A program made the position numbers and the translations under genes. From assembly GCA_903831595.1 (NCBI GenBank), contig CAIKXY010000004.1, forward strand, positions 7,152 through 71,151: a stretch of 64,000 bases of DNA. The letters are read 5' to 3'. The DNA comes from an uncultured bacterium. GTDB taxonomy: Bacteria > Patescibacteriota > Minisyncoccia > Phycocordibacterales > GWA1-40-21. This document shows positions 2,842-53,200 of the stretch, in pieces. The notes beneath the pieces were generated by a model. It was not told where the DNA came from and did no database searches. It worked only from the letters and a program-made list of their open reading frames with translations. Position 1 is the stretch's first letter. Every line of letters starts with the position of its first letter.

Positions 2842-5800
2842 ATGGAAGGTGGACCAAAAAATACAAATGAATTAGAAAAACAGGCCTTGATTGATGAGGT
2901 GGTATTAAATCTTAAAGGTGGTTTTATTGATAAAGCTTATAAAATTATAAAAGATAAGCCATTTGCTGATGAAATTATTAAATTACCCATAATACAGAAA
3001 CTCGCAACTGAAGAAATGGTAAGTAAAATTGATTATTTAAAATTTAATGACGCTATTAGAGTTAAAAAAATTTATGATATTCCGGATAAAGTAATAGAGT
3101 CCAAAGATATACAACTCAGTATTAAAAAAAGTGTTTTTTCTTTATTAAGTTACTCATTGATTTTTAATGATAATTCAATTAGGGAAAATAATAAATATTT
3201 ACCTCTAATAACAAATGATGAAATTAAAAAAGAGATAATACTAAAAATTACGGATGCTATGGGTCATACTGACCTAATCAAGCAATTAGAAAATATAGCA
3301 GAAACATTTTCTATACCTGATAAAATAATTAATTCTCCGGAAGTACAAAAATCGGCAATAAAATCCATGATTTCAAATATTGATATTGGTAACTTTGATA
3401 TATTCATAAAAATAAAAAATAAATTTAATATTTCTGATGAAATTTTAAATTTAAATAAAATATACAAATCAGTAATTAGCGGAGTGAAACGTTGTATAGA
3501 ATCAAATTATAAAGATAAAGAATTAGCAGGTATTATTAAATATTTTAATGTCCCCCAAAATGAAATACAGAAAATTGCTATAAAAGCAATGATAGATACA
3601 TTTGTTAGTGACAGTAAAAATAATGAGTATAGTGAATATAAAAAAATTATAAAAAAATATTCTATATCTGATGAAATATTAAAAAAAATTAAAACACAAC
3701 ATGAAGTTTTAGATAAATTACTAAATGATGATTTTTTTCAACCAAAATTGATTCAAAAAGTTAAAGAGGCATTTTTTATTACTGATGAAACCTTAAAATC
3801 GCAAGGTGTCAAAAATATTGTTATCAATAGTATTGTGAATTCGCTTGCAGATGACAATGTTAATAGATTTATAAAAATTAAAAAAGCCTTTAAAATATCA
3901 GACAATGAACTAATATCTCCTGATATACAGCAAACTGGTTTGAAAAAAATATACGCAAATTTTTCTGATAATTATAAAGGTAGTTTTTCAGGAATTATAA
4001 ATCTAATTGAAAAATTATCTATTCCTGACGAAATATTAAATTCTAAAGAAATGCAGAGAAATGCTATTGATGGTATAGCACACAAACTTAATGATTTTAA
4101 AGAAGAAGGTAGCTCTTACATACTGAAGATAATTGATAAATTTCAAATAAATGATGACGTACTAAAATTACCAAGGATACAAAAAGCAGCAAAAAATGCT
4201 GTAATTAATTGCATATATTACTGGGATTCAAATGGGGCTTTGGAAATAATAAAAAGATTTGGATTATCAAATGAATTATTAAAATCTTCTAAAGCTCAAA
4301 AAACTATTATGACTAGTATTGGGCTTTCTCTTAGTCAAGGTTTCATTGATACTGCATTAGAAATACAAAAAAAGTTTTCAATAAGCGATGATATATTTAA
4401 ATTACCCGATATGCAAAAATATATTATTGATGGAGTCACTTATTTATTAAGTATTAATCATGGCAGAGAAATTGACCAAGTAGTAAAAATGCTAGAAAAA
4501 TTTCAAATCAATAAAGATATTTTATCTAAAATGTTAACAGAAGATATAATCAGTTTTTTAGTAAATTACGGCCGTGCTCCTGAATATGTAAAGAGAATCC
4601 AATCATTATCATTGTCTGATAAATTATTTCAGTCCACTGAAATACAAGAGGTAGCAATTCAAACTATAATTAATAAATTTAAAGATAATAAATATGTTGA
4701 TGCATTGGAAATAATAGAAAGACTAAATGTTGAGATTCCAATAGAAAAGCTATTTGCTTTGCTTCCAAAATTTAAAAAATTAATAATTGAAGTTGAAAAA
4801 ATATATCCGAAATTGAAAGAAAAAATATACAAATCAAAATCATCTGAATTAAAGTATGAACTAATAAAAATATCAATTAAAAATTCTGATACAAAAGAAT
4901 TTATTAGTGCAATTAAAGATAATCCGTTTTTAATGGATGCCGTTGATAGAAATGAACAGTATGGCCCACACCTTCTAGCTAAATACATTGAATTTGATGG
5001 ATATTCAAAAGAAAATATTTCAATGCTTTTTGATACAAAAAAGAAAATTATGTCTGAGAATCCTGATATTGACCCTGAATCAGTTGAATTTAGAATATTA
5101 ATGCAAGAATCGTTGATGGATTTCAAAGATAATAAAAAGATTATTGCTGAAATAGAGAAGTCAGGAATAAAATCACAAGAGTGGTTAAACTACGAAGAAA
5201 CAACGAATTTCACACTAAATTCAGCAGAAGGAACACTTTCTTTTGCAGAAACAGTACAAACTCCATTAAATAGAATAAAAGAAACTATTGGTAGTTATTC
5301 AAATAAGATAAAAGAAGTTCTCAAACAATACATTGAAGAACTCAAAAAAGCACAGATTCCGATTGAAGATGCATCACAAATACAGTCACAGATACAAAAG
5401 ATGGAGAGTGAGTTAGAAAAAGCCAAGGTAGAAGGTAATGAGAGAAAAGTGCAGGGGATTGAAAAAGGATTATTGGGAATGAGAAAGAAACTTGAAACAA
5501 TCAAAACTGTTTCAGTTTGGGAAAAAATACTTAGTGACATTAGTGGATTTGATATGTTGAAGAATGATATCTCTTCTGCACAAGAAAAACTTACTGATGC
5601 TGAAAACCAGATTTATTCAGCAATGTCCGAAAAAGAACCGTCTGGCAAAAAGATTACCGAACTCAAAAAGATTTTGGGCGATTCAAAACGTGATTTCCAG
5701 GATAAATTTATGATGCTTGGAAAAAGAATTGCTAATTTCAAAGAAAGTTTGCTTGATAGACTATCATCTCTTGGCAAAGAACGTGCAGAATCATTAATCC

Positions 5801-6996
5801 AAGAAATAGAACAAGGACTAGCTGAGCAATTTGCTCACTATGATACCGATAAAGATACATTGCAGAACTTATTTGGTGAAAAGATGGAAAAAGATAAAGA
5901 AGTACTTGAATCAAGACCTATGAGTATTTTTGTTTGGGCAAGAAACCCAGATGTAGACCTATATCAAGGTAATTATTCACCTTGTTGTATTTGTATAGAT
6001 AGCGCACATATGGGAGCAGAATCAACAATAGCAGACTACGCTACTGATCTTGGAGTACAGATTGTAAATATCTGGGATGAAACTACAAATAAACCGGTAA
6101 CGGCTGCTTGGTGTTGGATAGGTGAAGATGATGCAGGTAAGCCAGCACTTGTAGTGGACAATGTCGAGTCAAATACTTTGTATAGTTCAAATTATTCTGA
6201 ACAACTCTCAAAAGAGTTACTAGATTATATAAAAGGATACGGAAAAGCTATTGGCATAAATAAAGTAGTACTTGGTAAAGCAAACAACGATTTGCCTAGT
6301 GCAAGTATAATGTCAAAATTGAAAGATAACGAAAAAACATTTACTAAACTTGGTGGTGCAAACCGTGCAGATAGTTATTTCCTTGAAGCTGAAGATGAAA
6401 ATGTAAAAGTAATATGGGATAAAGCAGAAAAAATTGAAAAGAAATCAAAAACTGAAGAAAAAGAAAGAATAAAATTTAATGATATTAGTATAAAATCTAT
6501 TGAAAATACTGATTTTGATTCTATAAAAAAACTAGAGAAAATTATTTACAGTGATGATTTAGCAATAGGTCAAGAAATGATAGAGGAATTGAAACACAGT
6601 AATGGTATGGAATATTCATTTATTGTGGAGGGTGTTCCGGAAGGTAAAACTGAAGTAGAACCTATAGGATATTTGGTTGCCACAGAAGATGAAACAGATG
6701 AGGGTGAACCATGTGTATATTTGGATGACATAGCTGTATTACCAGAAGCACAAAAACAAGGAATCGGTTGGAAAATGTTCAAAAATATAATTGATATATT
6801 AAAAACGAAAGCACAAGCCAAAAACCAACCTATACTCTTTGATATGCACTTGAGAAATTCATCAAGGGAGATGCTGGACAAACACATTAATGACCTAAAA
6901 GCTCTTGGAGTTGAAATGACTGAAGAAGCATTCGTACCTGACCACTATGATGAAGGAGATGATGCGGTGTATAGGGTATATAAGGTTAGTATATAA
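2842..6996 (+). CDS. large multidomain protein: about 15 tandem ~38-40-aa helical repeats, a coiled-coil segment, a Cys-containing domain, and a C-terminal GNAT N-acetyltransferase domain
   Basis: 1,384-aa uninterrupted ORF. Recurrent units resemble F.ISDEIL..P.IQK.AI. The coiled-coil region spans aa 780-960. The C-terminal region contains a GNAT motif A (LPEAQKQGIGWKMFKNII). No signal peptide or TM helix. Confidence 0.6.
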   Translation: MEGGPKNTNELEKQALIDEVVLNLKGGFIDKAYKIIKDKPFADEIIKLPIIQKLATEEMVSKIDYLKFNDAIRVKKIYDIPDKVIESKDIQLSIKKSVFSLLSYSLIFNDNSIRENNKYLPLITNDEIKKEIILKITDAMGHTDLIKQLENIAETFSIPDKIINSPEVQKSAIKSMISNIDIGNFDIFIKIKNKFNISDEILNLNKIYKSVISGVKRCIESNYKDKELAGIIKYFNVPQNEIQKIAIKAMIDTFVSDSKNNEYSEYKKIIKKYSISDEILKKIKTQHEVLDKLLNDDFFQPKLIQKVKEAFFITDETLKSQGVKNIVINSIVNSLADDNVNRFIKIKKAFKISDNELISPDIQQTGLKKIYANFSDNYKGSFSGIINLIEKLSIPDEILNSKEMQRNAIDGIAHKLNDFKEEGSSYILKIIDKFQINDDVLKLPRIQKAAKNAVINCIYYWDSNGALEIIKRFGLSNELLKSSKAQKTIMTSIGLSLSQGFIDTALEIQKKFSISDDIFKLPDMQKYIIDGVTYLLSINHGREIDQVVKMLEKFQINKDILSKMLTEDIISFLVNYGRAPEYVKRIQSLSLSDKLFQSTEIQEVAIQTIINKFKDNKYVDALEIIERLNVEIPIEKLFALLPKFKKLIIEVEKIYPKLKEKIYKSKSSELKYELIKISIKNSDTKEFISAIKDNPFLMDAVDRNEQYGPHLLAKYIEFDGYSKENISMLFDTKKKIMSENPDIDPESVEFRILMQESLMDFKDNKKIIAEIEKSGIKSQEWLNYEETTNFTLNSAEGTLSFAETVQTPLNRIKETIGSYSNKIKEVLKQYIEELKKAQIPIEDASQIQSQIQKMESELEKAKVEGNERKVQGIEKGLLGMRKKLETIKTVSVWEKILSDISGFDMLKNDISSAQEKLTDAENQIYSAMSEKEPSGKKITELKKILGDSKRDFQDKFMMLGKRIANFKESLLDRLSSLGKERAESLIQEIEQGLAEQFAHYDTDKDTLQNLFGEKMEKDKEVLESRPMSIFVWARNPDVDLYQGNYSPCCICIDSAHMGAESTIADYATDLGVQIVNIWDETTNKPVTAAWCWIGEDDAGKPALVVDNVESNTLYSSNYSEQLSKELLDYIKGYGKAIGINKVVLGKANNDLPSASIMSKLKDNEKTFTKLGGANRADSYFLEAEDENVKVIWDKAEKIEKKSKTEEKERIKFNDISIKSIENTDFDSIKKLEKIIYSDDLAIGQEMIEELKHSNGMEYSFIVEGVPEGKTEVEPIGYLVATEDETDEGEPCVYLDDIAVLPEAQKQGIGWKMFKNIIDILKTKAQAKNQPILFDMHLRNSSREMLDKHINDLKALGVEMTEEAFVPDHYDEGDDAVYRVYKVSI

Positions 6997-14621: not shown

Positions 14622-14650
14622 TTGACAGTCTTTCATATATAGACTATAAT
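14622..14650 (+). promoter_or_regulatory. near-consensus sigma70 promoter (TTGACA-17-TATAAT) upstream of the RRM protein gene, with a ~95-nt leader
   Basis: TTGACA at 14622-14627, a 17-nt spacer, and TATAAT at 14645-14650. Confidence 0.5.
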
Positions 14651-14748: not shown

Positions 14749-15015
14749 ATGAAGAAATTATATGTAGGTGGTGTTTCTTATAGCACTACAGAGCAAGGTT
14801 TATCAGACGCTTTTTCTAAAGCAGGAGAAGTTGCATCAGTTGCTATCATCATGGACAAAATGACAGGTAGATCAAAAGGATTCGGATTTGTTGAAATGAC
14901 AACCGAGGAAGGTGCAAAAGCAGCTATAGAAATGTGGAATGGTAAAGAACTTGATGGTAGAAAATTGACCGTCAACGAAGCAAGACCAAGAGAAGAAAGA
15001 CCAGCAAGATACTAA
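14749..15015 (+). CDS. RNA-binding protein with RRM domain
   Basis: RNP-2 (LYVGGV) and RNP-1 (KGFGFVEM) motifs. 88 aa. Confidence 0.85.
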   Translation: MKKLYVGGVSYSTTEQGLSDAFSKAGEVASVAIIMDKMTGRSKGFGFVEMTTEEGAKAAIEMWNGKELDGRKLTVNEARPREERPARY

Positions 15016-15034: not shown

Positions 15035-15063
15035 AGACCCGCTAACTGTGGGTCTTTTTGTTT
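15035..15063 (+). terminator. rho-independent terminator
   Basis: AGACCC-gctaactgt-GGGTCT hairpin followed by a T-run. Confidence 0.7.
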
Positions 15064-27150: not shown

Positions 27151-28740
27151 GTGATGAAACAGCTAACCAAAACAGACTTTATACTATATAGAGAATGTGC
27201 CAAAAATGTTTGGATTAAATGGCATATGCCGGAAGAATATAAAAAATTCCCAATTTCAAAATTTGAACAATCTTTGGGTGTGATGGGAAATGAAGTTGAA
27301 AAGCTAGCACGGGGAATGTTTCCAGATGGCTATTTGGTTGAAAAAAGAAGTGAAGGGGCGCAGGAGCTTACGAAGAAGCTGATGCTCGTGCATACGCCCA
27401 TCATATTTCAAGCGGTTTTCAGTACCGACAAGTATTTGGCCGCAACAGACGTCCTAAAATGGAACAAAGAAGCAAAAGCCTACGATTTGTACGAAATTAA
27501 AATGTCTTCCACAGAAGGCGAGAACGACGATGTATTGGAGGATGGTAAAGAGCCTAAGGTCAACAAAAAGAAAGAACTTCAATACGAATACGACTTGGCC
27601 TTTCAAACAAATGTTGCCAAACTTTGCGGTGTAAATTTTAATAAAAAATACCTTGTTCGTTTAAATAAAAAATACAAAAGAGTAGGGGATTTAGATTATT
27701 CAAAATTATTTGAAATTACAGACAAAACAGAAGTCTTAAACGAAACTTTTTTATCAATCGCTCTCACAGAAATGAATTCTGCTTATGAATATTTATCTGC
27801 GAAAAATACACCAATCGGCAGATGTTCTTGTTATTACAAAGGCCGTTCATCACACTGCACATCTTTCAGTATAAGCAATCCTGATGTGCCAACATACAGC
27901 GTTCACGATTTAAATAGAATTGGAAATAGTAAAAAATTGCTTGGCGAATTACTAAATGAAGGAATATTAAAAGTTGATGACGTTCCAGAAGAAATGGTAA
28001 AGCCCAAGAAGGCGAAAAAAGGTGAGGAAGATAAAAAACCAATCAAGCTCAACCAAGTCCGAGTTTATAAAACAAAACAGCCAATAATTGATATTGAAGC
28101 CATTAAAATGGAGCTAAATTCGCTCAAATTCCCCCTATATTTCCTTGATTATGAGACATACCCGACAGCTATTCCGCCATTTAGCGGTTATCATCCATAC
28201 CAGCACATTGTCTTTCAATATTCTTTACATATTTTAAAAAGTAAAGATGCAGAACTTGAACACAAAGAATGTTTGATACTAGAAGGAGATCCTGCAGAGA
28301 AAATCGTTGCAAGCTTGAGAGAAAATATTGGAGATACCGGAAGCGTAATTTCTTGGTATAAAAGTTTTGAAAATTCTAGAAACAAAGAACTCGCGGGGCT
28401 TGTGCCAGAGCAAGCAGAATTTTTGCATTCTGTAATTGAGCGCACTTATGATTTGATGGATATTGTTGATAAGCAGTATTATGTCCATCATGGATTCAAA
28501 GGAAGCTCATCAATCAAAAAAGTTCAGCCAGTAATAGCTCCCAATTTTTCATACAAAGACCTTGATGTTCAAAATGGAACTATGGCGATAGAAGCATACA
28601 GACAAATATCAGTAGGGGAACTCAAAGGCAAGGAAGTGGAAGAAAAAAGAAAACAAATGCTCAAATACTGCGAGTATGATACTTTGATTATGTATAAAAT
28701 TTGGAAATTCTTTATTGATTTGGTGGCTAAGAAAGAGTAA
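27151..28740 (+). CDS. DUF2779-family protein (predicted Cas4/RecB-like PD-(D/E)XK nuclease N-domain plus DUF2779 C-domain)
   Basis: N-terminus reads LTKTDFILYRECAKNVWIKWH with an N-terminal Cys. A Cys cluster follows (CSCYYKGRSSHC). The C-terminal half carries YFLDYETYPTAIPPF...YQHIVFQYSLH, characteristic of DUF2779. Confidence 0.55.
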   Translation: MMKQLTKTDFILYRECAKNVWIKWHMPEEYKKFPISKFEQSLGVMGNEVEKLARGMFPDGYLVEKRSEGAQELTKKLMLVHTPIIFQAVFSTDKYLAATDVLKWNKEAKAYDLYEIKMSSTEGENDDVLEDGKEPKVNKKKELQYEYDLAFQTNVAKLCGVNFNKKYLVRLNKKYKRVGDLDYSKLFEITDKTEVLNETFLSIALTEMNSAYEYLSAKNTPIGRCSCYYKGRSSHCTSFSISNPDVPTYSVHDLNRIGNSKKLLGELLNEGILKVDDVPEEMVKPKKAKKGEEDKKPIKLNQVRVYKTKQPIIDIEAIKMELNSLKFPLYFLDYETYPTAIPPFSGYHPYQHIVFQYSLHILKSKDAELEHKECLILEGDPAEKIVASLRENIGDTGSVISWYKSFENSRNKELAGLVPEQAEFLHSVIERTYDLMDIVDKQYYVHHGFKGSSSIKKVQPVIAPNFSYKDLDVQNGTMAIEAYRQISVGELKGKEVEEKRKQMLKYCEYDTLIMYKIWKFFIDLVAKKE

Positions 28741-28865
28741 TTTTAGTAATTGAAAATATTTATCGGTATGCTAATATTTAATTACCACCCAGTTGTTTGG
28801 GAGTTAGGAAGTGTGTTTACCGGAAAAAACATACTTCAAACCTCCAAAATTGTTGGTTGTATTTA

Positions 28866-28902
28866 AAGAGTCGTTCAGCCGGGTGAACGACTCCTTTTTT
28901 TA
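28866..28902 (+). terminator. rho-independent terminator
   Basis: 10-bp stem GAGTCGTTCA / TGAACGACTC with loop GCCGGG, followed by a run of 8 T. Confidence 0.65.
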
Positions 28903-28953
28903 TGTTAAATATTATTACAATTGCCGAGGCTCTACCTCGGCGAATTATATAAT

Positions 28954-28984
28954 ATTTTTCCCCGAGGTGGAGCCTCGGGGAAGT
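28954..28984. repeat. 31-bp perfect direct repeat, copy 1 (ATTTTTCCCCGAGGTGGAGCCTCGGGGAAGT), containing an 8-bp-stem palindrome
   Basis: Identical to 29371-29401. A related inverted variant, GCCGAGGCTCTACCTCGGC, lies at 28923-28941. Confidence 0.7.
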
Positions 28985-29000
28985 GTGATCAATTGTGTGC

Positions 29001-29028
29001 TTGACAAATATTTTACTTGTCCTATAAT
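29001..29028 (+). promoter_or_regulatory. near-consensus sigma70 promoter (TTGACA-16-TATAAT) with no protein gene downstream on this strand
   Basis: TTGACA at 29001-29006 and TATAAT at 29023-29028. Confidence 0.55.
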
Positions 29029-29034
29029 ATGTTC

Positions 29035-29365
29035 ACGGCAATCGGAGGCGGGTCCGAGCAGTGCACCCATGTTGCACTTGCGAAAAGCCAGTAGTTCTTT
29101 TATTTTTCACGAAGTCAGTCTGGTATTTAATGCCCGCTACATATCCAGACTGATATTTGGGAAAGGGGGAAATGAGTATAACCGGTCATATCTATACTTG
29201 TTTCTCAAACTTATGAAGTATCGGGAGTAGTTTCAAACGGTTGGAACTACTCCTAAGCATTAATATAACGGGCAAACAGGCGACTGTCACCGAGGATAAT
29301 ACCTGTTTGTATGACCAAGTGCTTCAATTAAGCTAGTCACATCGGTGTAGACTAGCTTATTTTAT
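29035..29365 (+). ncRNA. candidate structured non-coding RNA (about 330 nt; identity unknown)
   Basis: Runs from the promoter-predicted TSS to a hairpin plus T-rich tract (GCTAGTC...GACTAGC TTATTTTATT). Contains at least five stable hairpins of 6-9 bp. The termini can pair (GGCAAU with AUUGCC). The longest ORFs inside are trivial. A strong terminator follows at 29407-29437. Confidence 0.35.
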
Positions 29366-29370
29366 TGCCA

Positions 29371-29401
29371 ATTTTTCCCCGAGGTGGAGCCTCGGGGAAG
29401 T
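29371..29401. repeat. 31-bp perfect direct repeat, copy 2
   Basis: Identical to 28954-28984. The two copies bracket the promoter and the ncRNA candidate. Confidence 0.7.
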
Positions 29402-29406
29402 AAAAT

Positions 29407-29437
29407 GGCGGGCGCTTCGCGCCCGCCTAATTTTTTT
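29407..29437 (+). terminator. strong rho-independent terminator (GGCGGGCGC-ttcg-GCGCCCGCC plus T-run), possibly also acting on convergent dsbA
   Basis: 9-bp GC-only stem followed by TAATTTTTTT. Confidence 0.75.
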
Positions 29438-29438
29438 A

Positions 29439-30224
29439 TTACTTATTCAATATCGTATCAAGTATTGTCTTTACCATCTCAAATGGCAACGCGCCACTCA
29501 ACACAACGTCTTTTTTATCAGAAGAAATTATTACATTCTGTCCCAAACCATTTTTTACAATATAATCAGTCAAAGTACTTTCTGCACTTCCCGACAAAGC
29601 GGCTTTCAAAACCAAAACACTGTAAGGTGTTCCTTGTGCTCCTGCTTTTATGCCATCTTGAAAATCAGCTTCAACAGCAGCTGCATATTTTCCACTAGAT
29701 AAACAAGTATTAAATTTCGTGACATCAACACCAACAGATTTTGCAAATTCAGGGAGTTTTGCTGGATCAAGCTGATTGTTTGAAGGTGTATTTGTATAAA
29801 TTGTATCAAGCATTTTCCAGAAAGCTGTTTGCCCGCCAAGTTCATTTACACATTCTGTTGCTTCAGCTTCTTTTCTTGTTTTTGGATGGATAGAATCAAG
29901 AGGGAAATGTCTGTAAACCCAAGCCACTGTGCCAGCCTTAATATATGATTCTTTTACTGAATTCATTGTAGTTTGAAATACTTTACAATATGGGCATTCG
30001 GTATCGGAAAATTCTATAAGTGTAACCGGCGCATTTGGATTTCCAAGAAGATGATCGGTTGATGTTGCTGGACTTATAACAATGTCAGATGAATTATTTT
30101 GATTTGTATCAGCAACTGGTGCTGGAGAATTGCCTTTGTTTGATAAATATATACCTGCGGCCACGACAAACCCTGCCAAAATTATCGCTGCTGGAATTAC
30201 TAAATTATTTTTCTGCTCGTTCAT
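29439..30224 (-). CDS. DsbA-family thiol:disulfide oxidoreductase, membrane-anchored
   Basis: N-terminal TM helix. Thioredoxin fold with a CPYC active site (DTECPYCKVF). Confidence 0.8.
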   Translation of the reverse strand: MNEQKNNLVIPAAIILAGFVVAAGIYLSNKGNSPAPVADTNQNNSSDIVISPATSTDHLLGNPNAPVTLIEFSDTECPYCKVFQTTMNSVKESYIKAGTVAWVYRHFPLDSIHPKTRKEAEATECVNELGGQTAFWKMLDTIYTNTPSNNQLDPAKLPEFAKSVGVDVTKFNTCLSSGKYAAAVEADFQDGIKAGAQGTPYSVLVLKAALSGSAESTLTDYIVKNGLGQNVIISSDKKDVVLSGALPFEMVKTILDTILNK

Positions 30225-39781: not shown

Positions 39782-40258
39782 ATGATAGAACTTTTAACTA
39801 CTTCAGTTTTTGTACTTTCTTCAATCTATGGAGGACCTACAACTACTGCAGATGCGGGCATTGTAGCAACAACTACAGCACCAGGAGCAACAACAAGATT
39901 AGAAGAAAAGGCAACTAGCACGATAACAACAAGCAAGGAATTAGAAAAAAAAGTTAAAGCTTATTTTAAAGATGATCCAATACTTGTAGATATAGCTAGA
40001 TGCGAATCGAGATTTAGACAATTAGATTCAAACGGAAACATTTTAAGGGGATTAATCAATAAAGGCGACTTAGGTATAATGCAGATAAATGAATATTATC
40101 ATGCAGATAAGGCAGCCAAACTAGGTTATAATCTTAAAACAGTTGATGGTAACCTAGCTTATGCAAAGTACTTGTATAACAAAGAAGGTGTTCAGCCATG
40201 GATTTCGTCATCAAAGTGTTGGAATCAAACAGGAGATGAAGTTGCTCTAAATAGATAA
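39782..40258 (+). CDS. lytic transglycosylase-like (lysozyme-fold) secreted protein
   Basis: Start moved to an internal ATG (MIELLTTS...) because the track start lies inside the promoter. Motifs ARCESRFRQ and GIMQINEYYH resemble the SLT catalytic region. Confidence 0.5.
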   Translation: MIELLTTSVFVLSSIYGGPTTTADAGIVATTTAPGATTRLEEKATSTITTSKELEKKVKAYFKDDPILVDIARCESRFRQLDSNGNILRGLINKGDLGIMQINEYYHADKAAKLGYNLKTVDGNLAYAKYLYNKEGVQPWISSSKCWNQTGDEVALNR

Positions 40259-40447
40259 TTTAATAATAAAAATAAAAGACTTCCAGTAAAAATGCTGGGA
40301 GTTTTTTATTTGAATAGATTAATATTAATTATGATTTAGATAGTTATATTGATGGGGAGTGGCAGATTTGTATATTATGTATGTGTCGCACAATATATCT
40401 TTGCGACACTATATAGGTACACCCTCTAGAGTACAATATAACAAAAC

Positions 40448-40472
40448 AAAAGACCGCTGATGTGGTCTTTTG
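40448..40472. terminator. bidirectional terminator hairpin
   Basis: AAAGACC-gctgatgt-GGTCTTT with flanking A-rich and T-rich tracts. Confidence 0.45.
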
Positions 40473-40495
40473 TAATAAATATACTATGAGCTTCT

Positions 40496-40753
40496 CTATT
40501 GAACTCCAAGTGCAGATAAACCCCCCTGTAAAGTTTTCCAGAGTATTCCTAAGACAATTTTATCCCAGAAAAAAGTAAACGGCACTGAAAGATAGTGCGT
40601 CCAAATATTTGATATAAAGTTCCACGCTGTGTGTAAATTTGACTGAACTGTTTGCCCATTAATAATGTCACCAACATTAAAACCAAAATAACCTAAAATG
40701 ATTAGTGCTATAACGATAACTATAATAGTTTTTATTAATCCTTGTTTAGTCAT
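40496..40753 (-). CDS. small membrane protein (hypothetical)
   Basis: 85 aa with one N-terminal TM helix. Confidence 0.35.
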   Translation of the reverse strand: MTKQGLIKTIIVIVIALIILGYFGFNVGDIINGQTVQSNLHTAWNFISNIWTHYLSVPFTFFWDKIVLGILWKTLQGGLSALGVQ

Positions 40754-40806
40754 AATTTTTATTTAAATAATTATTAATCTAACTTACCTATTATTTTACA
40801 ACTTTA

Positions 40807-42102
40807 TTAAAGATACTGCAACGGATCAAGATACGCTCTTAAATCGGCGACTGGCATAGTATACGTTCCATTACAAACATTACTTTTTCTACTCATTATT
40901 TTAACTCCTTGAGTAGCATAAAGACCAAAATGTAAATGCGGGCCAGTACTAAAGCCTGTATTGCCAGAATAGCCTATGACATCGCCAGTAGTCACTATAT
41001 CCCCTGCTGAAACCTTGATAAGTGAAAGGTGCCCATATAAAGTTGAAAGCCCATTATTGTGTTCAATAAAAACCCACTGCCCAAAAGATGCTCCAGGGCA
41101 AACTGAATCTGTGTTACCAGTGCCTTTTATAACACCACTTAAAGCAGCCTTAACTGAGGTACCAATTGATGCAGAAAAATCAACACCATTATGTCCTTGT
41201 CCATTATATGCATTCGTAGTTTTAGAAAAATCTGTAATTCCAAATTTCTGAGTAATTTTTATTGAATCCAGTGGCCATGATAAAATTCCTTTTCCAATAT
41301 GAGGTATAGCATTCAAATCCATTGTAAACTTAAGCTGTGACTCAAACATCAACAATTCATTATCAAAAGCATCAGCGAGAGTCTTTTTATCTGAAAGTAA
41401 TTTTTTGTATGCAGTTTCTGAATTCTTAGTATCAGCAAGTAATTTATTTTTTTCTTTCTTGGTGATGGCAAGAACACTTTTTTTATCAAGCAATGTAGCT
41501 TTCAATTTTAGCAAATCAGCTTTTTTCTTTTCAGCAAGCTTTTTGTTATTTTCTAAAATAGTTTTTGTATCCCTTGTCTCATTAATCTTTTCTCTAATCT
41601 GATTTTGGACAAGAAAAATATTTTGCTGTTCATTCCAAAATTCAGAAAGATTTTTATATGTTAATAAGTTTTCAATAGTAGAAGAATTGTCATAATTATT
41701 AATTTGTTTAACAAGTATTGAGATTGCTTCAGTGTCTTTGTTAATTAAATCAATATTTTTTTCAATGTTTAGTGATAAAGAATCTATTTCAAGAGAAGTT
41801 GAATTAATATTGTTTTGAGTAAGCTTTATGTCTAGTGCGTTTTTATTTATTGTAGCATCGAGAGATTTAATAGTATTTTTTAATGATACAGCTTGTTGAC
41901 CGATATCTTTCAATTGCTGCTCGTATTGAGCAATTTCTTGTTCTATCTGAATTTTATTTGAAGTAATTTGCTGAATCTGTAATTTTATTTCATCAGATGA
42001 TATTGAATTAACTATTTTATAATTTATAAGTAAAAACGTCAGGAAAATAATTCCAAAAAATAATTTTATTGATAAATATTTTGACTTTTTATTAAAAAAC
42101 AT
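40807..42102 (-). CDS. M23 family metallopeptidase (LytM domain) with N-terminal coiled coil, EnvC/NlpD-like
   Basis: HNGVDFSA...YGHLS...GNTGFSTGPHLHFGLY metal-binding motifs. A long coiled-coil N-region with a TM anchor. Confidence 0.85.
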   Translation of the reverse strand: MFFNKKSKYLSIKLFFGIIFLTFLLINYKIVNSISSDEIKLQIQQITSNKIQIEQEIAQYEQQLKDIGQQAVSLKNTIKSLDATINKNALDIKLTQNNINSTSLEIDSLSLNIEKNIDLINKDTEAISILVKQINNYDNSSTIENLLTYKNLSEFWNEQQNIFLVQNQIREKINETRDTKTILENNKKLAEKKKADLLKLKATLLDKKSVLAITKKEKNKLLADTKNSETAYKKLLSDKKTLADAFDNELLMFESQLKFTMDLNAIPHIGKGILSWPLDSIKITQKFGITDFSKTTNAYNGQGHNGVDFSASIGTSVKAALSGVIKGTGNTDSVCPGASFGQWVFIEHNNGLSTLYGHLSLIKVSAGDIVTTGDVIGYSGNTGFSTGPHLHFGLYATQGVKIMSRKSNVCNGTYTMPVADLRAYLDPLQYL

Positions 42103-47271: not shown

Positions 47272-50200
47272 CTAATTATATAATAAATTTTTTCTTTTAT
47301 CACCCTTACCACGACGAATAGTAAAAATGGTGCCAATATAAACCAACGCTACAAAAATACCTAATAATAAAATGTTTTGTAAGTTAAGTATTTTTGCTAC
47401 AGAAAATATCGCCTTTAATTCAAGATTCATAAATACCCCTTTGCTCTCATCCACCTGGAATGGATCTCCTTTGTAATCTACGTACCCGTCAAGATGTGCT
47501 GTCATATAATATATACCAGCAGGGACAAGGAATGAGTATCTGCCTGTTACATCCGTCGTCTGTGGATTGGTTTGTCTATAATCTTTTGCTGGCCATAATT
47601 CATAATTTTTTGTCTTTGGATTTTGCCAATAAATAGATACTTCAACGTTATTCAAACGAGTTTCTTTTCCATCTGATTGTTTTTCATAAACATACCCCTC
47701 TGGGTCCACCAAAACGACCATGCTTATTTTTTCTGGAGCTTTTGACGCTGCTTTGAAATTGACGACTGTCCTCAATTCATATTGACCAATTGCAAGTGGT
47801 GATGCAACATCTGCTGTCCAAATACCATCGACATTTTCTTTATAATTAAATTTGGTCAAAACAAGATCTGTTTCACTTGTAATTCCTGAGTCATTTGTTT
47901 GAGTACCCTGACTTTCACCAATTATTGTACTTGCGACTGTTGCGACTTGTGAAAGAGTAGATTTCTTTGAAACAGCATTTGATTTGAATATAATATAACC
48001 TTGAATATTTTTTGCTGGTGCTGTTGGTTTTACAATAAGCTTCATTGTCTGGCCTTGGATTGTATTTAGGGTTTGTAATGCCAAACCATCATTTCCGATT
48101 GAAAGTTTTACATTCAAGTCTATCTTTTCATCTTGCGTTCTTGCAAAAACTATACCTGTAGGTATTTTAGCTTTTTGTGTATCAGATAAGCTAGCTATTG
48201 GTAAAGTATTTGAAGATAGTGTAGCTGCTTCCGTAATACCTGGTAATGATATAGGATTTGCATTCAACTTTAATATGGAATTCATATTATTTACTCCAAT
48301 TTTACTCAAAGCCGAACTTACTTCAGGAAACTTAGAAACAATATCCGTGTAATCACTTGGGAGTTTGGTATTAATTAAATCTGTCAAAGAAGAAGGAGTT
48401 ATAATTTTCCACGAATTTAATATTGCAAATGGCGCGACGGAAGGGAGTGTTGTCTTAACTTCAGTAAGTGCAAGTGGTTCTATTTTCTTTGGTGGAAGAA
48501 TTACCGTAAGAATATCAGCAGTTGTACTTGCTATGTTTCCGACAATACTTTGCGTTGTATTTGATATACTATTTATTATAGAAACAGTAGAAAGAGTAAT
48601 TGATTGGGACACTGCTGGTGAAGAAATTCCTTGTGCATCTAGAAATTTAGCATAAACATAATATTTTCCGTCTGGACATGTTGTACTATTTTGACATAAA
48701 TCATAAGTGGTTGTTGTTATATTATTTGCGGAATATGGAATGGTAACAGTATTTGTGAAATCTGGATTATTGGAAAAGATTATTGCAGTTGCACTACCAA
48801 GCTGATCTGTAGAAAATTGCAAAGTTACTTTTCTGTCATCTGTTGTCCATGCTCCACCGTTTATAGATACGGAATATCTTGGAGAGGATGAACCACCTCC
48901 AGATATAGAACTGAGTGATGAGCTTGCAGTTGTATAATTTTTTCTTCCTGATGGTACTGCATATGTCATATGTGTAGCAGAGGATGACGTGTCTTTATTA
49001 CCAAGATAATCCTGACATGCTATATAGACATTCTTAGGTCCTGGAGTCCCAAGAGTAGGTAGTATACAAGACATTTGTATTCCATTATTTACAGAACAAG
49101 ATACTCCAGAGGACATTTGATCATACGATTGCGCTGTATCGGAAACTACAAGACGACAATCTCCTACTTTACTCAAAGTAAATGTGACTAGATTTCCAGT
49201 ATAAATATTTGAATTATCAACAGGACTAATGTTTGAAATTGTAGCTAGTGTTTTGTCTATATTAATTATTCTAGAAACTATTGTTTGAATATTTCCAGCA
49301 TTATCAATAGAAGAATATCTGAAATAATTTGTACCTCCATTTGAAACAACTACTGATGCAACATAGCTAATGCTTGGTGTACAGGTATTAGCGTTATCAA
49401 TACAATAACTGGTAGTTGCAATTCCGGATGTTGTATCAGCTGGATTTAAGGTAATTGTAATATTACTATTTGTCCATGCGCTGTATGTATAAGGTTGGGT
49501 TTGACTTGTCACAGCTGTATCTGTTGTCATTGGTGCAACAGTATCTATCTTTACAATCCTACTGACCGTGGTTTGTATATTGTTAGCATTATCTTCTGAT
49601 GCATAACGGAAATATGAAATACCTTCAAATGGTATAACTACTGGAGCAGAATAATCTGTACCATCAGCTGGAGAGCATGTGTTATTTGTATCAACACAAT
49701 ATCTAGTCCATAAAATTCCAGAACTTGGTGCAGGATCATTTGGTGTCAAAGTAATTGTCTGATTGCCATTTACCCAAATATTATTGTTTGTAAAATTATC
49801 AGATGTATTTGGTGCTGTTTTGTCTACATGTCTATGTCCTGTTATTATTTGTCCTGAATTACCAGCGATATCAACTGGGAAATATTTCAAAACATAATCT
49901 CCTTCTGATGTAATAGTAAACTGCCAGCTTGATGATGCCTCTACATATTGTGATGCAAGACTTGGATTTGTATTATCAGTTGTATAGTAAATTCTGTAAC
50001 AACCAGAACCAACTACTCCATCATCACAGGTGAAAGTAACTGTGCTTGCATTTGCAAAAGTAGATGTTGCAACAGTTACTGTTGGTAATTGATTATCAAA
50101 CTTCAAGTCATTTGAATCTGTATATATACTGGTAGTGTTTCCTGCAAAATCATTTGCTTTATATCTCAGTACAGAATCACCTTCTGTAGAGTACGTAAAT

Positions 50201-53200
50201 GCAAATGATGTACCAGATGTTGCATAATTTGTATCTGGAGTACATGGAGTAGTTGAAGCTAAATATGTACAATAATAAACTTGATTACAACCGGATGTAC
50301 TATCAGTACAACTCAAAGTGACAACAATTGGACTTGTATGCCAATTGTTATCAGCATTAGATGATACTGATGATGGTGCTACTGTATCCCATGTCAAACT
50401 AAATGTAGATGAAGCTAAATTACCTGCATTGTCTGTTGCAAGAAGTTTAATTACATATGTACCATCTGTATTAGCAGAAATTGTTGTGTTTGCTGATGTT
50501 GATGAACCAAAAGTAATTGTCCCTGGTCCAGAAACTTTTGACCATAGATACGATGCTATTCCTGAAGTGAGGTCACTAGAGCTAGCACTTGTTGTAAATG
50601 TAGAGCTTGAAGTCATGTTTGAACCAGCACTTACAACTGGAGATGTCGTGTCCCAAATTAGGTTGAATGTTGATGAAGAAGAGTTACCTACATTATCAGT
50701 CACAAGAAGTTTAATTACATATGTACCATCTGTGTTTGCAGAAATTGTTGTGTTTGCTGATGTTGATGAACCAAAAGTAATTGTCCCTGGTCCAGAAACT
50801 TTTGACCATAGATACGATGCTATTCCTGAAGTTACATCACTTGCAGTGGCCGTTGTTGTAAATGTAGAATTTGCAGTTTTGTTTGCACCGGCATTTACTG
50901 TTGGTGGTACAGTATCAACAGTAAATGTACTAGTGGCTGCATTTGCATTAGATGTTGTATTACTATAAGCATCAGTTGCTCTTACATATATCGTATGACT
51001 TCCATCCGCAAGCGTAGAAGCAGTGCAACTAAATCCTTCCGTAGAAGAATTAAAAGCTCCATCAGCTGCAGTACAGTTTATCCAGCTGCCACTCGTTCCA
51101 TCGATTTGATATTGAACATTCGAAACTATTCCTGGATTTGAAAGTGTCCCTGCATCAGTAGATGTTCCGTAAATAGTTGGCGTAGTATTACTCGTGAAAG
51201 CAGCGACACTACCTAAATTAATTGTTGGTGGAGTAATATCAAAAGTCCAGTTTGTATTTCCGCCACCATCAACACAACCAGTGGTACAAAGAAATGCGGT
51301 AGAACTTAAATTTGTTGAGCTTGCGACGTTTAGATATGATAGATTGGTTGTACCAGCTCCGGTTTGGACAAGATTAAAAGTATTTGCAAGAAAATATGAA
51401 CTAGTTGGTGGCGTAAAGTTTGAAGTCCAACGAGCAACACCTTTTGATATTCTAAATTCATCTAAATGTCCATCTAAATAATAAGGACTTCCTGTATAAT
51501 AACCTTCCCACCCAATACGAAGTGGAGTAGATGGTGTATATATAGTGGCTGTGAAAGTGGTACCTCCAACATTTTGTAACACCCCATTAACAAAGAAATA
51601 TATCTTTCCACCTGTTCTTGAAATAGCAATATGGTACCAAGTATTGGTAGAAAAAGCATAAGATACACCTAGTGTGGTAGCAGAGCTTCCTGTTGTAGTG
51701 TACGCAAATTGAAGATGTGTTCCATCTTGCATATTTACATTAAAAGAAAAATCATTAGCACTCACCTCTTGCCCATAAAATGTTACAAAATGGTAAGAAC
51801 CGCCAGTAGAATTTAATCTAACTCTAAAATCTATAGTAAAATCACCCGACCCTAAATTAAAATCGGAACTTGCTGGAGTACTTATATATTTATTTACTGG
51901 AAAATTTCCCGACGCTCCTCCGAATACACTTGTAGAAGTATCAATAGTGCTACTATAAGATGTAAAAGTGTGAAGACCAGATGAACTATCTGTAAAGGTA
52001 GAGGAATTGTTTGCTCCATCCATATGCAACATTAATTTTGTATAACTATCTATTCCACCTGGAATTGGACTAATACTTAAAAGATTATTGAGAGCACCAT
52101 TTAGTGTAAGGTTATTTGTTATTGTAGTTGTATTTAAAGAATCAAGAAGTAAAGATGTTGCTGCTGATGTTGTTTTGGTCAAATTATTAAAAGAATTTGC
52201 ACCAATAATTGATTGTGCTGTTCCATTCAAATTTACACTTCCACTATTACTTGAAAAGGTACCTCCGGAATTTGTCCAGTTGCCACCAACATTAAGCGTA
52301 CCAGATGGAGCTGTAAATGTTCCAGCAGAAAGTGTTAAATTTCCTGGGATTGTTAAATTACTAGTTCCTACAGTGAATGTCCCTCCGGAACCATTAATAG
52401 TCAAATTATTATAAGACCAGTCTTTGATTGCTCTTGTACTTGTAGTCGCCGTATAAGTCACAGTTGAACTAGTAAGGGTTGGCGTGGCAAGTGCACTACC
52501 ACCAACAGCAGTTTCATCCCCAGTAAGTTTAAGATTTGCACTAACATTAAATACGGTCGGAGAAAATTGATACCCAGCTAAATTCAAAGTTCCACTTCCA
52601 GATACTGTAGTAGTTGCAGAATATTGATTTCCTACAAGTGTAACAGTGTTTGAATCAATAGTTGCAATATCATATGGACCAGGATACGCGACGCCTTCTA
52701 TTGTTCCTGATGTTCCCCATGTGGTACTCGCCTGCCAATTACCATTTGCGACGTCATTAAATGTTGTTGGTGCAACAGAACCTCCGTCATTAATGGTCCA
52801 TCCTTTTGCAACAATTGCTGCACGAGCAGTTGCTGGTGTGCCAGTATAATATTGCGATGAACCACCAGTAAAGGTTACGGGGCTTTTTAATGTTTGTGTA
52901 GACCAACCTTGTAAAATTTTACTATAATTTATCGTTGATAATGTATCCCCAGTAAACATGTTTGACATATTTGTAGAACTTGAAACAACCCAATTACCCA
53001 AATTTTGGTTAAAAGCAGAGTCAAATCCAAACATATAATTCATGGTAGTAACTTTGGCTGTATTCCATCCAGAAATATTTTGATTAAATGCACTGTAGTA
53101 AAACATCTGTGACATGTCAGTAACATTCGAAGTATTCCAATTACCTATTGAAGAACTAGCGGCATTGTTAAAAACACCACCAGCACCAGAAAACATGCCA

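Follow-up and report, generated by a model that had tools for sequence, protein, structure and literature searches.

We describe a putative non-coding RNA (ncRNA) gene in a 64,000-nt stretch of DNA (hereinafter, the window) from an uncultured bacterium of the Patescibacteriota (contig CAIKXY010000004.1 of the assembly GCA_903831595.1), a core-genome stretch of a Paceibacteria-type member of the Candidate Phyla Radiation (CPR). In the 698-bp spacer between the convergent genes for a DUF2779 protein and a DsbA/thioredoxin-like protein, a perfect consensus promoter precedes an RNA body of about 335 nt that is predicted to fold into a series of long hairpins and would end at intrinsic terminators. 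We infer the transcription, the ends, the mode of origin and the function of this RNA from the sequence, and tentatively propose, with a confidence that stops somewhat short of even, that the unit is a young, strain-specific, independently transcribed ncRNA gene which is neither a housekeeping RNA gene nor a member of a known family. The unit consists of the following elements:

29001-29028, + strand: P2, a perfect sigma-70 consensus promoter (TTGACA-16-TATAAT) with a score of 12/12 and a predicted start at ~29035.
29035-29369, + strand: the structured RNA body (~335 nt), a closing helix around 7 or 8 hairpins, with 112 predicted pairs, 13 of them G.U.
29407-29437, both strands: T2, a strong bidirectional intrinsic terminator with 9 G-C pairs (stem 29407-29427), a 3-nt loop and a T-run.

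Over the two strands of the window (128 kb in total), only two promoter sites reach a score of 12/12. The earlier note on this DNA, made from the sequence alone, had pointed to the promoter at 29001-29028 and to the lack of a protein gene behind it; the site indeed scores 12/12 and is not followed by a credible open reading frame (ORF). On the opposite strand, only a 10/12 promoter-like site is present, and no terminator is associated with it. The other 12/12 site (TTGACA-17-TATAAT, 14622-14650) drives, via a leader of ~100 nt, the gene for an 88-aa RRM_1 RNA-binding protein (14749-15015; Pfam E-value 1.6e-22), which is followed by a terminator-like hairpin at about 15038-15060; an RRM protein of this type is a typical kind of highly expressed gene.

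The T-tract hairpin and the GC-stem terminator at 29407-29437, which had been described as the end of the RNA, are both present, the first being weak and the second strong. The weak terminator consists of a hairpin (29329-29359) followed by UUUUAUU and is passed over by the terminator scanner because its loop is 11 nt long. T2 is predicted to stop read-through RNA on the + strand and dsbA transcripts on the − strand, and is retained by relatives with altered stem bases, i.e., as orthologous stems.

The five hairpins previously listed and the pairing of the RNA ends are all found both in the sequence and in the minimum free energy (MFE) fold, in which the hairpin loops range from 4 to 21 nt. 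These helices, all on the + strand, are:

29037-29041 / 29365-29369, + strand: end-closing helix GGCAA/UUGCC.
29061-29065 / 29073-29077, + strand: hairpin GUGCA/UGCAC.
29114-29123 / 29145-29154, + strand: hairpin GUCAGUCUGG/CCAGACUGAU.
29167-29180 / 29193-29206, + strand: 14-bp stem.
29223-29236 / 29241-29254, + strand: 14-bp stem.
29272-29280 / 29302-29310, + strand: hairpin GCAAACAGG/CCUGUUUGU.
29329-29338 / 29350-29359, + strand: hairpin UAAGCUAGUC/GACUAGCUUA.

The MFE of the 327-nt RNA is -107.9 kcal/mol, compared to -81.6 +/- 4.7 kcal/mol for dinucleotide shuffles (z-score -5.56; 0 of 100 shuffles were as good), and for 29035-29440 the z-score reaches -7.8. When the entire 64 kb was folded on both strands, the top composition-corrected segments of 327 nt all fell into this spacer. 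The reverse complement has an MFE of -91.3 kcal/mol (z-score -3.71), so that the promoter strand is more stable by 16.6 kcal/mol, and 13 of the 112 pairs are G.U pairs that would become A.C mismatches if read from the other strand; therefore, the structure fits an RNA produced from the strand of the promoter. The fold also leaves room for a possible loop-loop contact between GGCGGG (29047-29052) and GCCCGCU (29132-29138).

Comparison of the whole window with Rfam 15 using cmscan at the gathering score recovered two tRNAs only, and at E<=10 with permissive filters, queries of 801 nt and 346 nt gave no match in the RNA body. Sub-threshold Rfam matches (ctRNA_pGA1 and others) are confined to the flanking hairpin-plus-terminator pairs. 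One such pair, formed by the repeat hairpin hpC (see below) and the GC terminator (29372-29441), matches ctRNA_pGA1 with 33.8 bits against a cut-off of 45 (E-value 8e-5 in a small search), probably owing to the generic likeness of two hairpins followed by a U-tail. ARAGORN detected no tmRNA. The earlier note could not match the RNA to RNase P, tmRNA, SRP or 6S RNA; Rfam (E<=10) and ARAGORN give the same answer, and these four are excluded as its identity. The Rfam HEARO and IS605-orfB motifs gave no match either, and the element is single-copy. The Pfam scan covered ~40 ORFs of the window, including all those that flank the spacer, and left out six ORFs, among them two very large ones of 1384 aa (2842-6996, + strand) and 2906 aa (47272-55992, − strand). 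Among the scanned ORFs, there is no TnpA, TnpB, IscB or IS110 gene to go with IS200/IS605 ends (PATE) or with an omega-RNA/bridge-RNA module, and no recombinase, transposase, integrase, reverse transcriptase or Cas/Tas-like protein. In the literature on ncRNAs of CPR/Patescibacteria, nothing that matches this RNA was found.

The region had been described as gene-free, and the inspection of its ORFs bears this out. The largest ORF of the spacer (28811-29230, 139 aa), which is annotated publicly over the region, crosses a terminator and a promoter, has no Pfam match and, among 5.8 billion proteins, occurs in its own strain only. The small ORFs inside the RNA have no family match. In frame 2 of 29031-29336, there are two in-frame stops before a TAG, both TGA, such that ~101 codons would be open if UGA were a sense codon. 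A coding region with UGA as sense was considered and rejected: under code 11, the long ORFs of the genome are uninterrupted and the remainder of the window reads well, and the open frame appears to be a coincidence.

The locus is present at 99.9-100% identity in five other assemblies (three from ENA and two Logan contigs) that represent several samples; an assembly artefact is rejected given the agreement of these five independent assemblies. The Logan contigs end exactly at a 31-nt repeat (29372), presumably because the repeat length equals the k-mer size, which we assume to be 31. The Logan contig L005 (SRR8496323) ends at 28786, inside the strain-specific segment, where no repeat accounts for the break, which may reflect heterogeneity of the population in that sample.

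Relatives were sought by synteny, using contigs that encode DUF2779 proteins with 71-95% identity together with the DsbA protein of the window itself (compared contigs and loci are labeled L001-L023). The look-up of the DsbA protein returned the same strain only. The RNA body (29036-29336) has no counterpart in the same spacer of any relative examined, including those in which the DUF2779 DNA is 89-92% identical. Sequence scans employed six degenerate seeds of 24 nt (8 residues) each or exact seeds of 18-21 nt. When the frames of the RNA were translated and used as pseudo-protein seeds, no relative was found in IMG/VR, in the genomes of 185,579 GTDB species or in the JGI metagenomes (241 million records). 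The hairpin pattern had 0 exact matches in IMG/VR and the 185,579 species genomes, an 18-mer from the 5' domain gave only chance matches to GC-rich coding sequences in viral contigs, and blastn returned no match among phages and plasmids. A 3'-end 20-mer was found only in L011 and L012, both of which lack the RNA body. Taken together, these sequence comparisons, which would overlook homologs less than about 85-90% identical, provide a strong indication, though not proof, that the RNA is an orphan. All known copies come from one strain and, being ~100% identical, offer no covarying pairs.

These results bear on the tentative assignment of the RNA in the earlier note as an unclassified structured ncRNA. 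The promoter, the gene-free context, the strong structure and the lack of an Rfam match stand, whereas membership in a conserved class does not, given that the RNA is absent from relatives. Similarly, the arrangement of promoter, RNA and repeat that was to be sought next to DUF2779 or dsbA genes of other CPR genomes does not recur; what does recur, in the sister lineage represented by L011 and ahead of a different cargo, is limited to the 25-nt hairpin and the final ~30 nt.

What the relatives encode in place of this RNA differs from one lineage to another. In L018-L023, the DUF2779 DNA is 92.5% identical to that of the window; the match to the window breaks off after 28753 and resumes at 29398, and between these points the loci have a spacer of 246 bp, with a different promoter (TTGACT-17-TAAGAT) directly after the stop codon and a different structured RNA of ~170 nt that has no Rfam match and no similarity to the RNA of the window. 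In L011, the order after the stop codon is a promoter-like segment (hereinafter, seg), the hairpin CCCUGAGGUGGAGCCUCGGGGAAGU, a TTGACA promoter, a good Shine-Dalgarno (SD) sequence (AAGGAGG) and a hydrophobic 60-aa ORF that matches nothing in Pfam or PADLOC. The L011 arrangement is seen in shortened form in L006 and L012, where a deletion of ~225 bp between short CCYTG repeats has taken away the hairpin together with the promoter and the greater part of the ORF, leaving the 3' end of the latter. The spacer of L007 contains two unrelated small genes, and the more distant L001, L002/L003 and L017 (73-78% DNA identity) have a spacer of only 100-135 bp with a terminator. Taken together, the more distant relatives have either 100-190 bp or other small genes at this site, and the other spacers found here span 100-290 bp. 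The two alternative arrangements are located as follows:

L018, 4088-4333: alternative RNA cargo, identical in L019-L023 (fold z-score -3.5).
L011, about 360-60, read on the − strand: the L011 arrangement with the two-helix 60-aa ORF (MLNFVAILLG...).

The part of the RNA that is shared with relatives begins only at ~29337: the segment 29337-29402, which runs from the 3' arm of the last hairpin through the U-tract and the 3' closing-helix strand to hpC, is 88% identical to L011 over 68 nt and, as far as 29367, 94% identical to L006/L012 over 32 nt. DNA identity to L018 is 92-93% to the left of the spacer but only about 82.5% beyond it, suggesting that the spacer coincides with a recombination breakpoint. 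The same asymmetry is seen across the sister strains (L018, L011 and L006), with about 89-93% identity on the left (dnaG, rpoD, DUF2779) and about 81-83% on the right (dsbA, uppP, L21).

The strain-specific segment (28754-29397, ~640 bp) is internally repetitive, with three promoter-like copies of the GTGCTTGA type and three copies of a hairpin. Along with P2 and the RNA body, it comprises or overlaps these features:

28750-28777, + strand: P1, promoter-like TTGAAA-16-TAATAT, TG-extended (9/12), directly after the DUF2779 stop codon.
28784-28900, + strand: S1, a candidate small RNA (sRNA) of ~115 nt or 3'-untranslated region (3'-UTR) module, with an 11-bp hairpin, an ACCGG loop and a terminator (28868-28893 + T7).
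28924-28944: hpA, an inverted, slightly diverged hairpin copy (CCGAGG-CUCUA-CCUCGG) that together with hpB forms an inverted repeat with 27-nt arms.
28954-28984, + strand: hpB, the left copy of a perfect 31-nt direct repeat (ATTTTTCCCCGAGGTGGAGCCTCGGGGAAGT), with a stem of 8-10 bp and a 5-nt loop, ending 16 nt before the -35 box.
29144-29254, + strand: S2, the centre of the RNA, which includes a counterpart of the S1 terminator hairpin without the T-run; tentatively a diverged duplicate of S1.
29319-29369, + strand: the right copy of seg, degenerate and promoter-like, which provides the 3' arm of the last hairpin, the U-tract and the 3' strand of the closing helix.
29371-29401, + strand: hpC, the right-hand copy of the 31-nt repeat; its ortholog in L011 is CCCUGAGG...CCUCGGGG.

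P1 is the left copy of seg (GT..TTGA...ATCGGT), which spans 28750-28790 and aligns with the segment that follows the stop codon in L006/L011/L012 (TTGATA-18-TAGACT) and in L018 (TTGACT-17-TAAGAT); P2 shares with seg only the GTGCTTGAC core around the -35 box. The 31-nt repeats are in direct orientation, have 10-nt inverted arms and bracket the promoter and the RNA, and no further copy exists in the window (0 expected by chance). In the hairpin of L011, a C-to-U change keeps a G.U pair on the + strand. None of the 31-nt repeat, the upstream unit (28750-28900), the possible internal duplications and the absence in relatives was mentioned in the earlier note.

The S1 unit folds with a z-score of -4.5, contains a CCUCC stretch and could be either a separate sRNA or the 3' UTR of the DUF2779 gene. 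A gapped local alignment of S1 (28785-28896) with S2 over ~112 nt scores 34, compared to 19.9 +/- 2.8 for shuffles, and nhmmer does not detect this similarity; we consider the paralogy of S1 and S2 to be tentative. Covariation between the two units was examined and set aside: the register of MAFFT with RNAalifold is unreliable, and a hand alignment can be read either as three compensatory pairs or as a 4-nt shift, so that these pairs were not counted. The repeat structure suggests that a small ancestral spacer gave rise to the segment by local duplication and rearrangement. That a foreign cassette was inserted appears less likely because the right side preserves the order seg-hairpin-terminator, with the new DNA upstream.

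By combining these observations, we propose the following scenario. In this strain, an ancestral spacer that consisted of a promoter-like seg, a hairpin, a small cargo and terminators would have been duplicated and rearranged. RNA polymerase with the primary sigma factor, for which rpoD is encoded two genes upstream, would start at ~29035 from P2 and produce an RNA of ~335 nt, the ends of which pair and the body of which forms 7 or 8 hairpins that are long and nearly perfect. The weak terminator (29329-29369) would end the majority of transcripts, and read-through would add hpC and stop at the strong terminator (29407-29437). The role of the RNA would most likely be trans-acting regulation or sequestration of a protein, with a benefit that is specific to the strain and dispensable for the lineage. 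A further-reaching version, namely, that this is a newly born functional large structured ncRNA, put together in one CPR strain lineage through duplication of a small sRNA locus, and that the alternative RNA or peptide cargos of coexisting strains at the hotspot, close to which relatives hold defence genes, are strain-specific determinants of interaction or immunity, possibly swapped via the 31-bp hairpin sites, strikes us as improbable.

Several observations weigh against a functional ncRNA gene. The closest lineages lack the RNA, which accordingly is dispensable. The earlier note had regarded conservation and covariation in related genomes as the mark of a functional RNA; no homolog beyond one strain was found, and homologs that share less than about 85-90% identity may have escaped the seed-based scans. 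Even without selection, mutation can create palindromes and thereby perfect stems of 9-14 bp. Alignment scores of 33-36 are also obtained with unrelated parts of the window (roughly p 0.005), which puts the similarity between S1 and S2 only marginally above the background. The single variant, C29133A, was inferred from P0122, in which an Ala in the 139-aa ORF is replaced by Asp (1,321-nt ENA contig); it is located in the GCCCGCU apical loop of the 29114-29154 hairpin, with no compensating change visible at the protein level, and mildly speaks against constraint on the loop-loop contact.

Under the most serious rival explanation, the segment is recent, non-functional, hairpin-rich filler DNA that duplication, template switching and palindrome formation generated in a hotspot of indels and recombination, with a relic copy of the ancestral promoter behind DUF2779 that matches the consensus by chance; any transcript would be noise. 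The absence of the RNA from all relatives and from the scans, the wholesale replacement of the spacer content between strains, the drop in flanking identity (92% on the left, 82% on the right), the several internal duplicates and the unusually long and perfect stems all speak for such filler. However, 12/12 promoters are rare (the window has two), the promoter strand folds clearly better, the 13 G.U pairs are not expected of template switching, and the segment is maintained at ~100% identity across five samples; furthermore, the tiny genomes of CPR bacteria hold very little non-coding DNA, and the other spacers here are only 100-290 bp long. We regard filler as unlikely. The hypothesis of an excisable or mobilisable cassette, in which 31-bp lox/dif-like sites with inverted arms around an asymmetric spacer flank a 386-bp cargo of promoter and RNA that would pass between strains with the help of a recombinase encoded elsewhere, draws on the perfect 31-nt direct repeat that exactly brackets the promoter and the RNA, on the single hairpin copy in front of a different promoter-driven cargo in L011, on the hypervariability of the site between co-occurring strains and on the accessory or defence genes next to DUF2779 in relatives (PDC-S46 in L001, GmrSD_N/HNH in L017). 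Against such a cassette, no recombinase, transposase or integrase is found among the ~40 scanned window proteins; the hairpin occurs nowhere else in the window or the fetched loci, with 0 matches in IMG/VR and the 185,579 species genomes; relatives differ by the whole of 28754-29397, not by the 417-bp unit from repeat to repeat; and the seg-hairpin-terminator backbone is intact on the right, with strain-specific DNA upstream of seg. A 5-nt central spacer is, moreover, atypical of the sites of tyrosine recombinases. This explanation seems quite improbable to us.

An alternative in which the RNA is a structured mRNA for a small peptide, similar to a type I toxin or a small membrane protein, with the SD and the start codon sequestered in the manner of hok, is suggested by L011, where an SD and a hydrophobic 60-aa ORF follow the shared hairpin and a TTGACA promoter. 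In the window, a GGAGG (29044-29048) lies 12 nt before the GTG of a 30-aa ORF (29061-29153) with a hydrophobic stretch, both the SD and the start codon are in stems, and the RNA ends pair. Features in common with hok/sok mRNAs are a very stable, compact fold of ~350-400 nt with pairing of the 5' and 3' ends and a buried SD and start codon, as well as strain variability; a sister strain has a small hydrophobic ORF at the same place. Yet neither a toxin ORF nor an antisense RNA gene is convincing here, and sequence similarity to hok/sok is lacking: the SD lies far from the start codon, which is GTG; no family or homolog is known for the ORFs; an antisense unit of promoter and terminator was not convincingly found (the 10/12 site on the − strand has no terminator); and neither the peptide nor the gene of L011 shows similarity. 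We find a peptide mRNA very doubtful. Extremely improbable is a very divergent housekeeping RNA (RNase P, 6S, SRP or tmRNA) or a stem-loop TIGR array. The length of ~335 nt, the closing helix and the strong promoter would fit an RNase P-like RNA, and GGAGGCGGGUCCGAGC and AGACUAGCUUAU loosely resemble, by eye, the RNase P motifs CR-I and CR-V; this candidate fails because the would-be P4 strands are not complementary and the 3' motif pairs locally. Apart from the lack of any Rfam match (346-nt query) and of a tmRNA, strains with 92% identical flanks are not expected to have lost or exchanged a housekeeping RNA. Stem-loop TIGR arrays, which consist of tandem variable hairpins, are found in CPR bacteria, and in each of their units box C (CCA) and box D (UG) motifs border two spacers of 8-12 nt (PMC12045711). 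The likeness lies in the run of hairpins with variable palindromic stems in one RNA of a CPR host. In contrast to TIGR arrays, however, TRF finds no tandem repeat or periodicity, the loops of 4-21 nt are too short for two such spacers plus box C/D, and no repeated unit or conserved box C/D arrangement was identified. Furthermore, there is no adjacent Tas with a Nop domain, the neighbours being DUF2779, DsbA-like, RpoD and BacA proteins, and none among the scanned proteins of the window.

The interpretation that we favour, a young ncRNA gene, can also be set against known systems of other kinds. Like orphan, lineage-specific sRNA genes of bacteria, among them tandem sibling loci such as PrrF1-PrrF2/PrrH of Pseudomonas, the unit stands alone, from promoter to terminator, between unrelated genes and has no ORF; turnover between close strains is fast, a candidate paralog (S1) is located upstream, and both a short and a long product are conceivable. 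Compared to typical base-pairing sRNAs, however, this RNA is much larger and more structured (~335 nt, 7 or 8 long hairpins and a closing helix). It also resembles OLE, ROOL, GOLLD and raiA, all represented in Rfam, which are likewise promoter-driven, multi-helix RNAs of several hundred nt without coding capacity; those, unlike this RNA of a single strain without Rfam similarity, are widely conserved and show covariation. The hairpins, for their part, are reminiscent of REP/REPIN/BIME elements in that a short GC-rich hairpin occurs in three copies, with an inverted doublet (hpA/hpB), after the 3' end of a gene; unlike REP/REPIN, they are not dispersed (in the 64 kb, related loci and 185,579 genomes), and no RAYT or IS200-like transposase is present among the scanned ORFs.

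The gene order in the window is rpoB, rpoC, dnaG, rpoD, DUF2779, the spacer, dsbA-like, uppP/BacA, L21 and pyrG, and the homologs of the DUF2779 protein carry source names such as Paceibacterota, Nomurabacteria and similar ones. The genes that border the spacer are:

27151-28740, + strand: DUF2779 gene (Pfam PF11074).
29439-30224, − strand: DsbA/thioredoxin-like gene.

In relatives, the content of the junction between rpoD and DUF2779 varies as well, and the following genes were identified there:

L001, 1785-3998: a 737-aa PADLOC PDC-S46 candidate defence protein (E-value 1e-225) and a KTSC-domain protein.
L017, 1-2461: GmrSD_N/HNH and RNase H-like genes.
L002, 3348-4004: an HNH protein.
L018, 1458-2508: two unknown ORFs, one with a weak HEPN/Csx1-like match (E-value 0.003).

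Elsewhere in the window, a 550-bp spacer (40258-40807) lies where the genes change from the + to the − strand and the GC skew changes likewise; with several hairpins, it is among the more structured parts of the window (z-score about -4.2), includes a short ORF-like stretch on the − strand at about 40500-40750, and could lie near the replication terminus or host another RNA. A relation of the ncRNA locus to the replication origin or terminus or to a dif site was considered and rejected, given that the skew does not turn there and that there is no similarity to the spacer near 40.3-40.8 kb.

The RNA fills no housekeeping gap and does not represent a new conserved class of RNAs, and its wider importance is limited for now. 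Within the lineage, three different small promoter-driven cargos occupy one spacer among strains with about 92% identical flanking genes. If expressed, the RNA would be useful for the study of ncRNA birth and turnover and of strain-level variation in uncultured episymbionts, and would provide a clean natural example of the birth and replacement of a large structured RNA gene in a very small, streamlined CPR genome.

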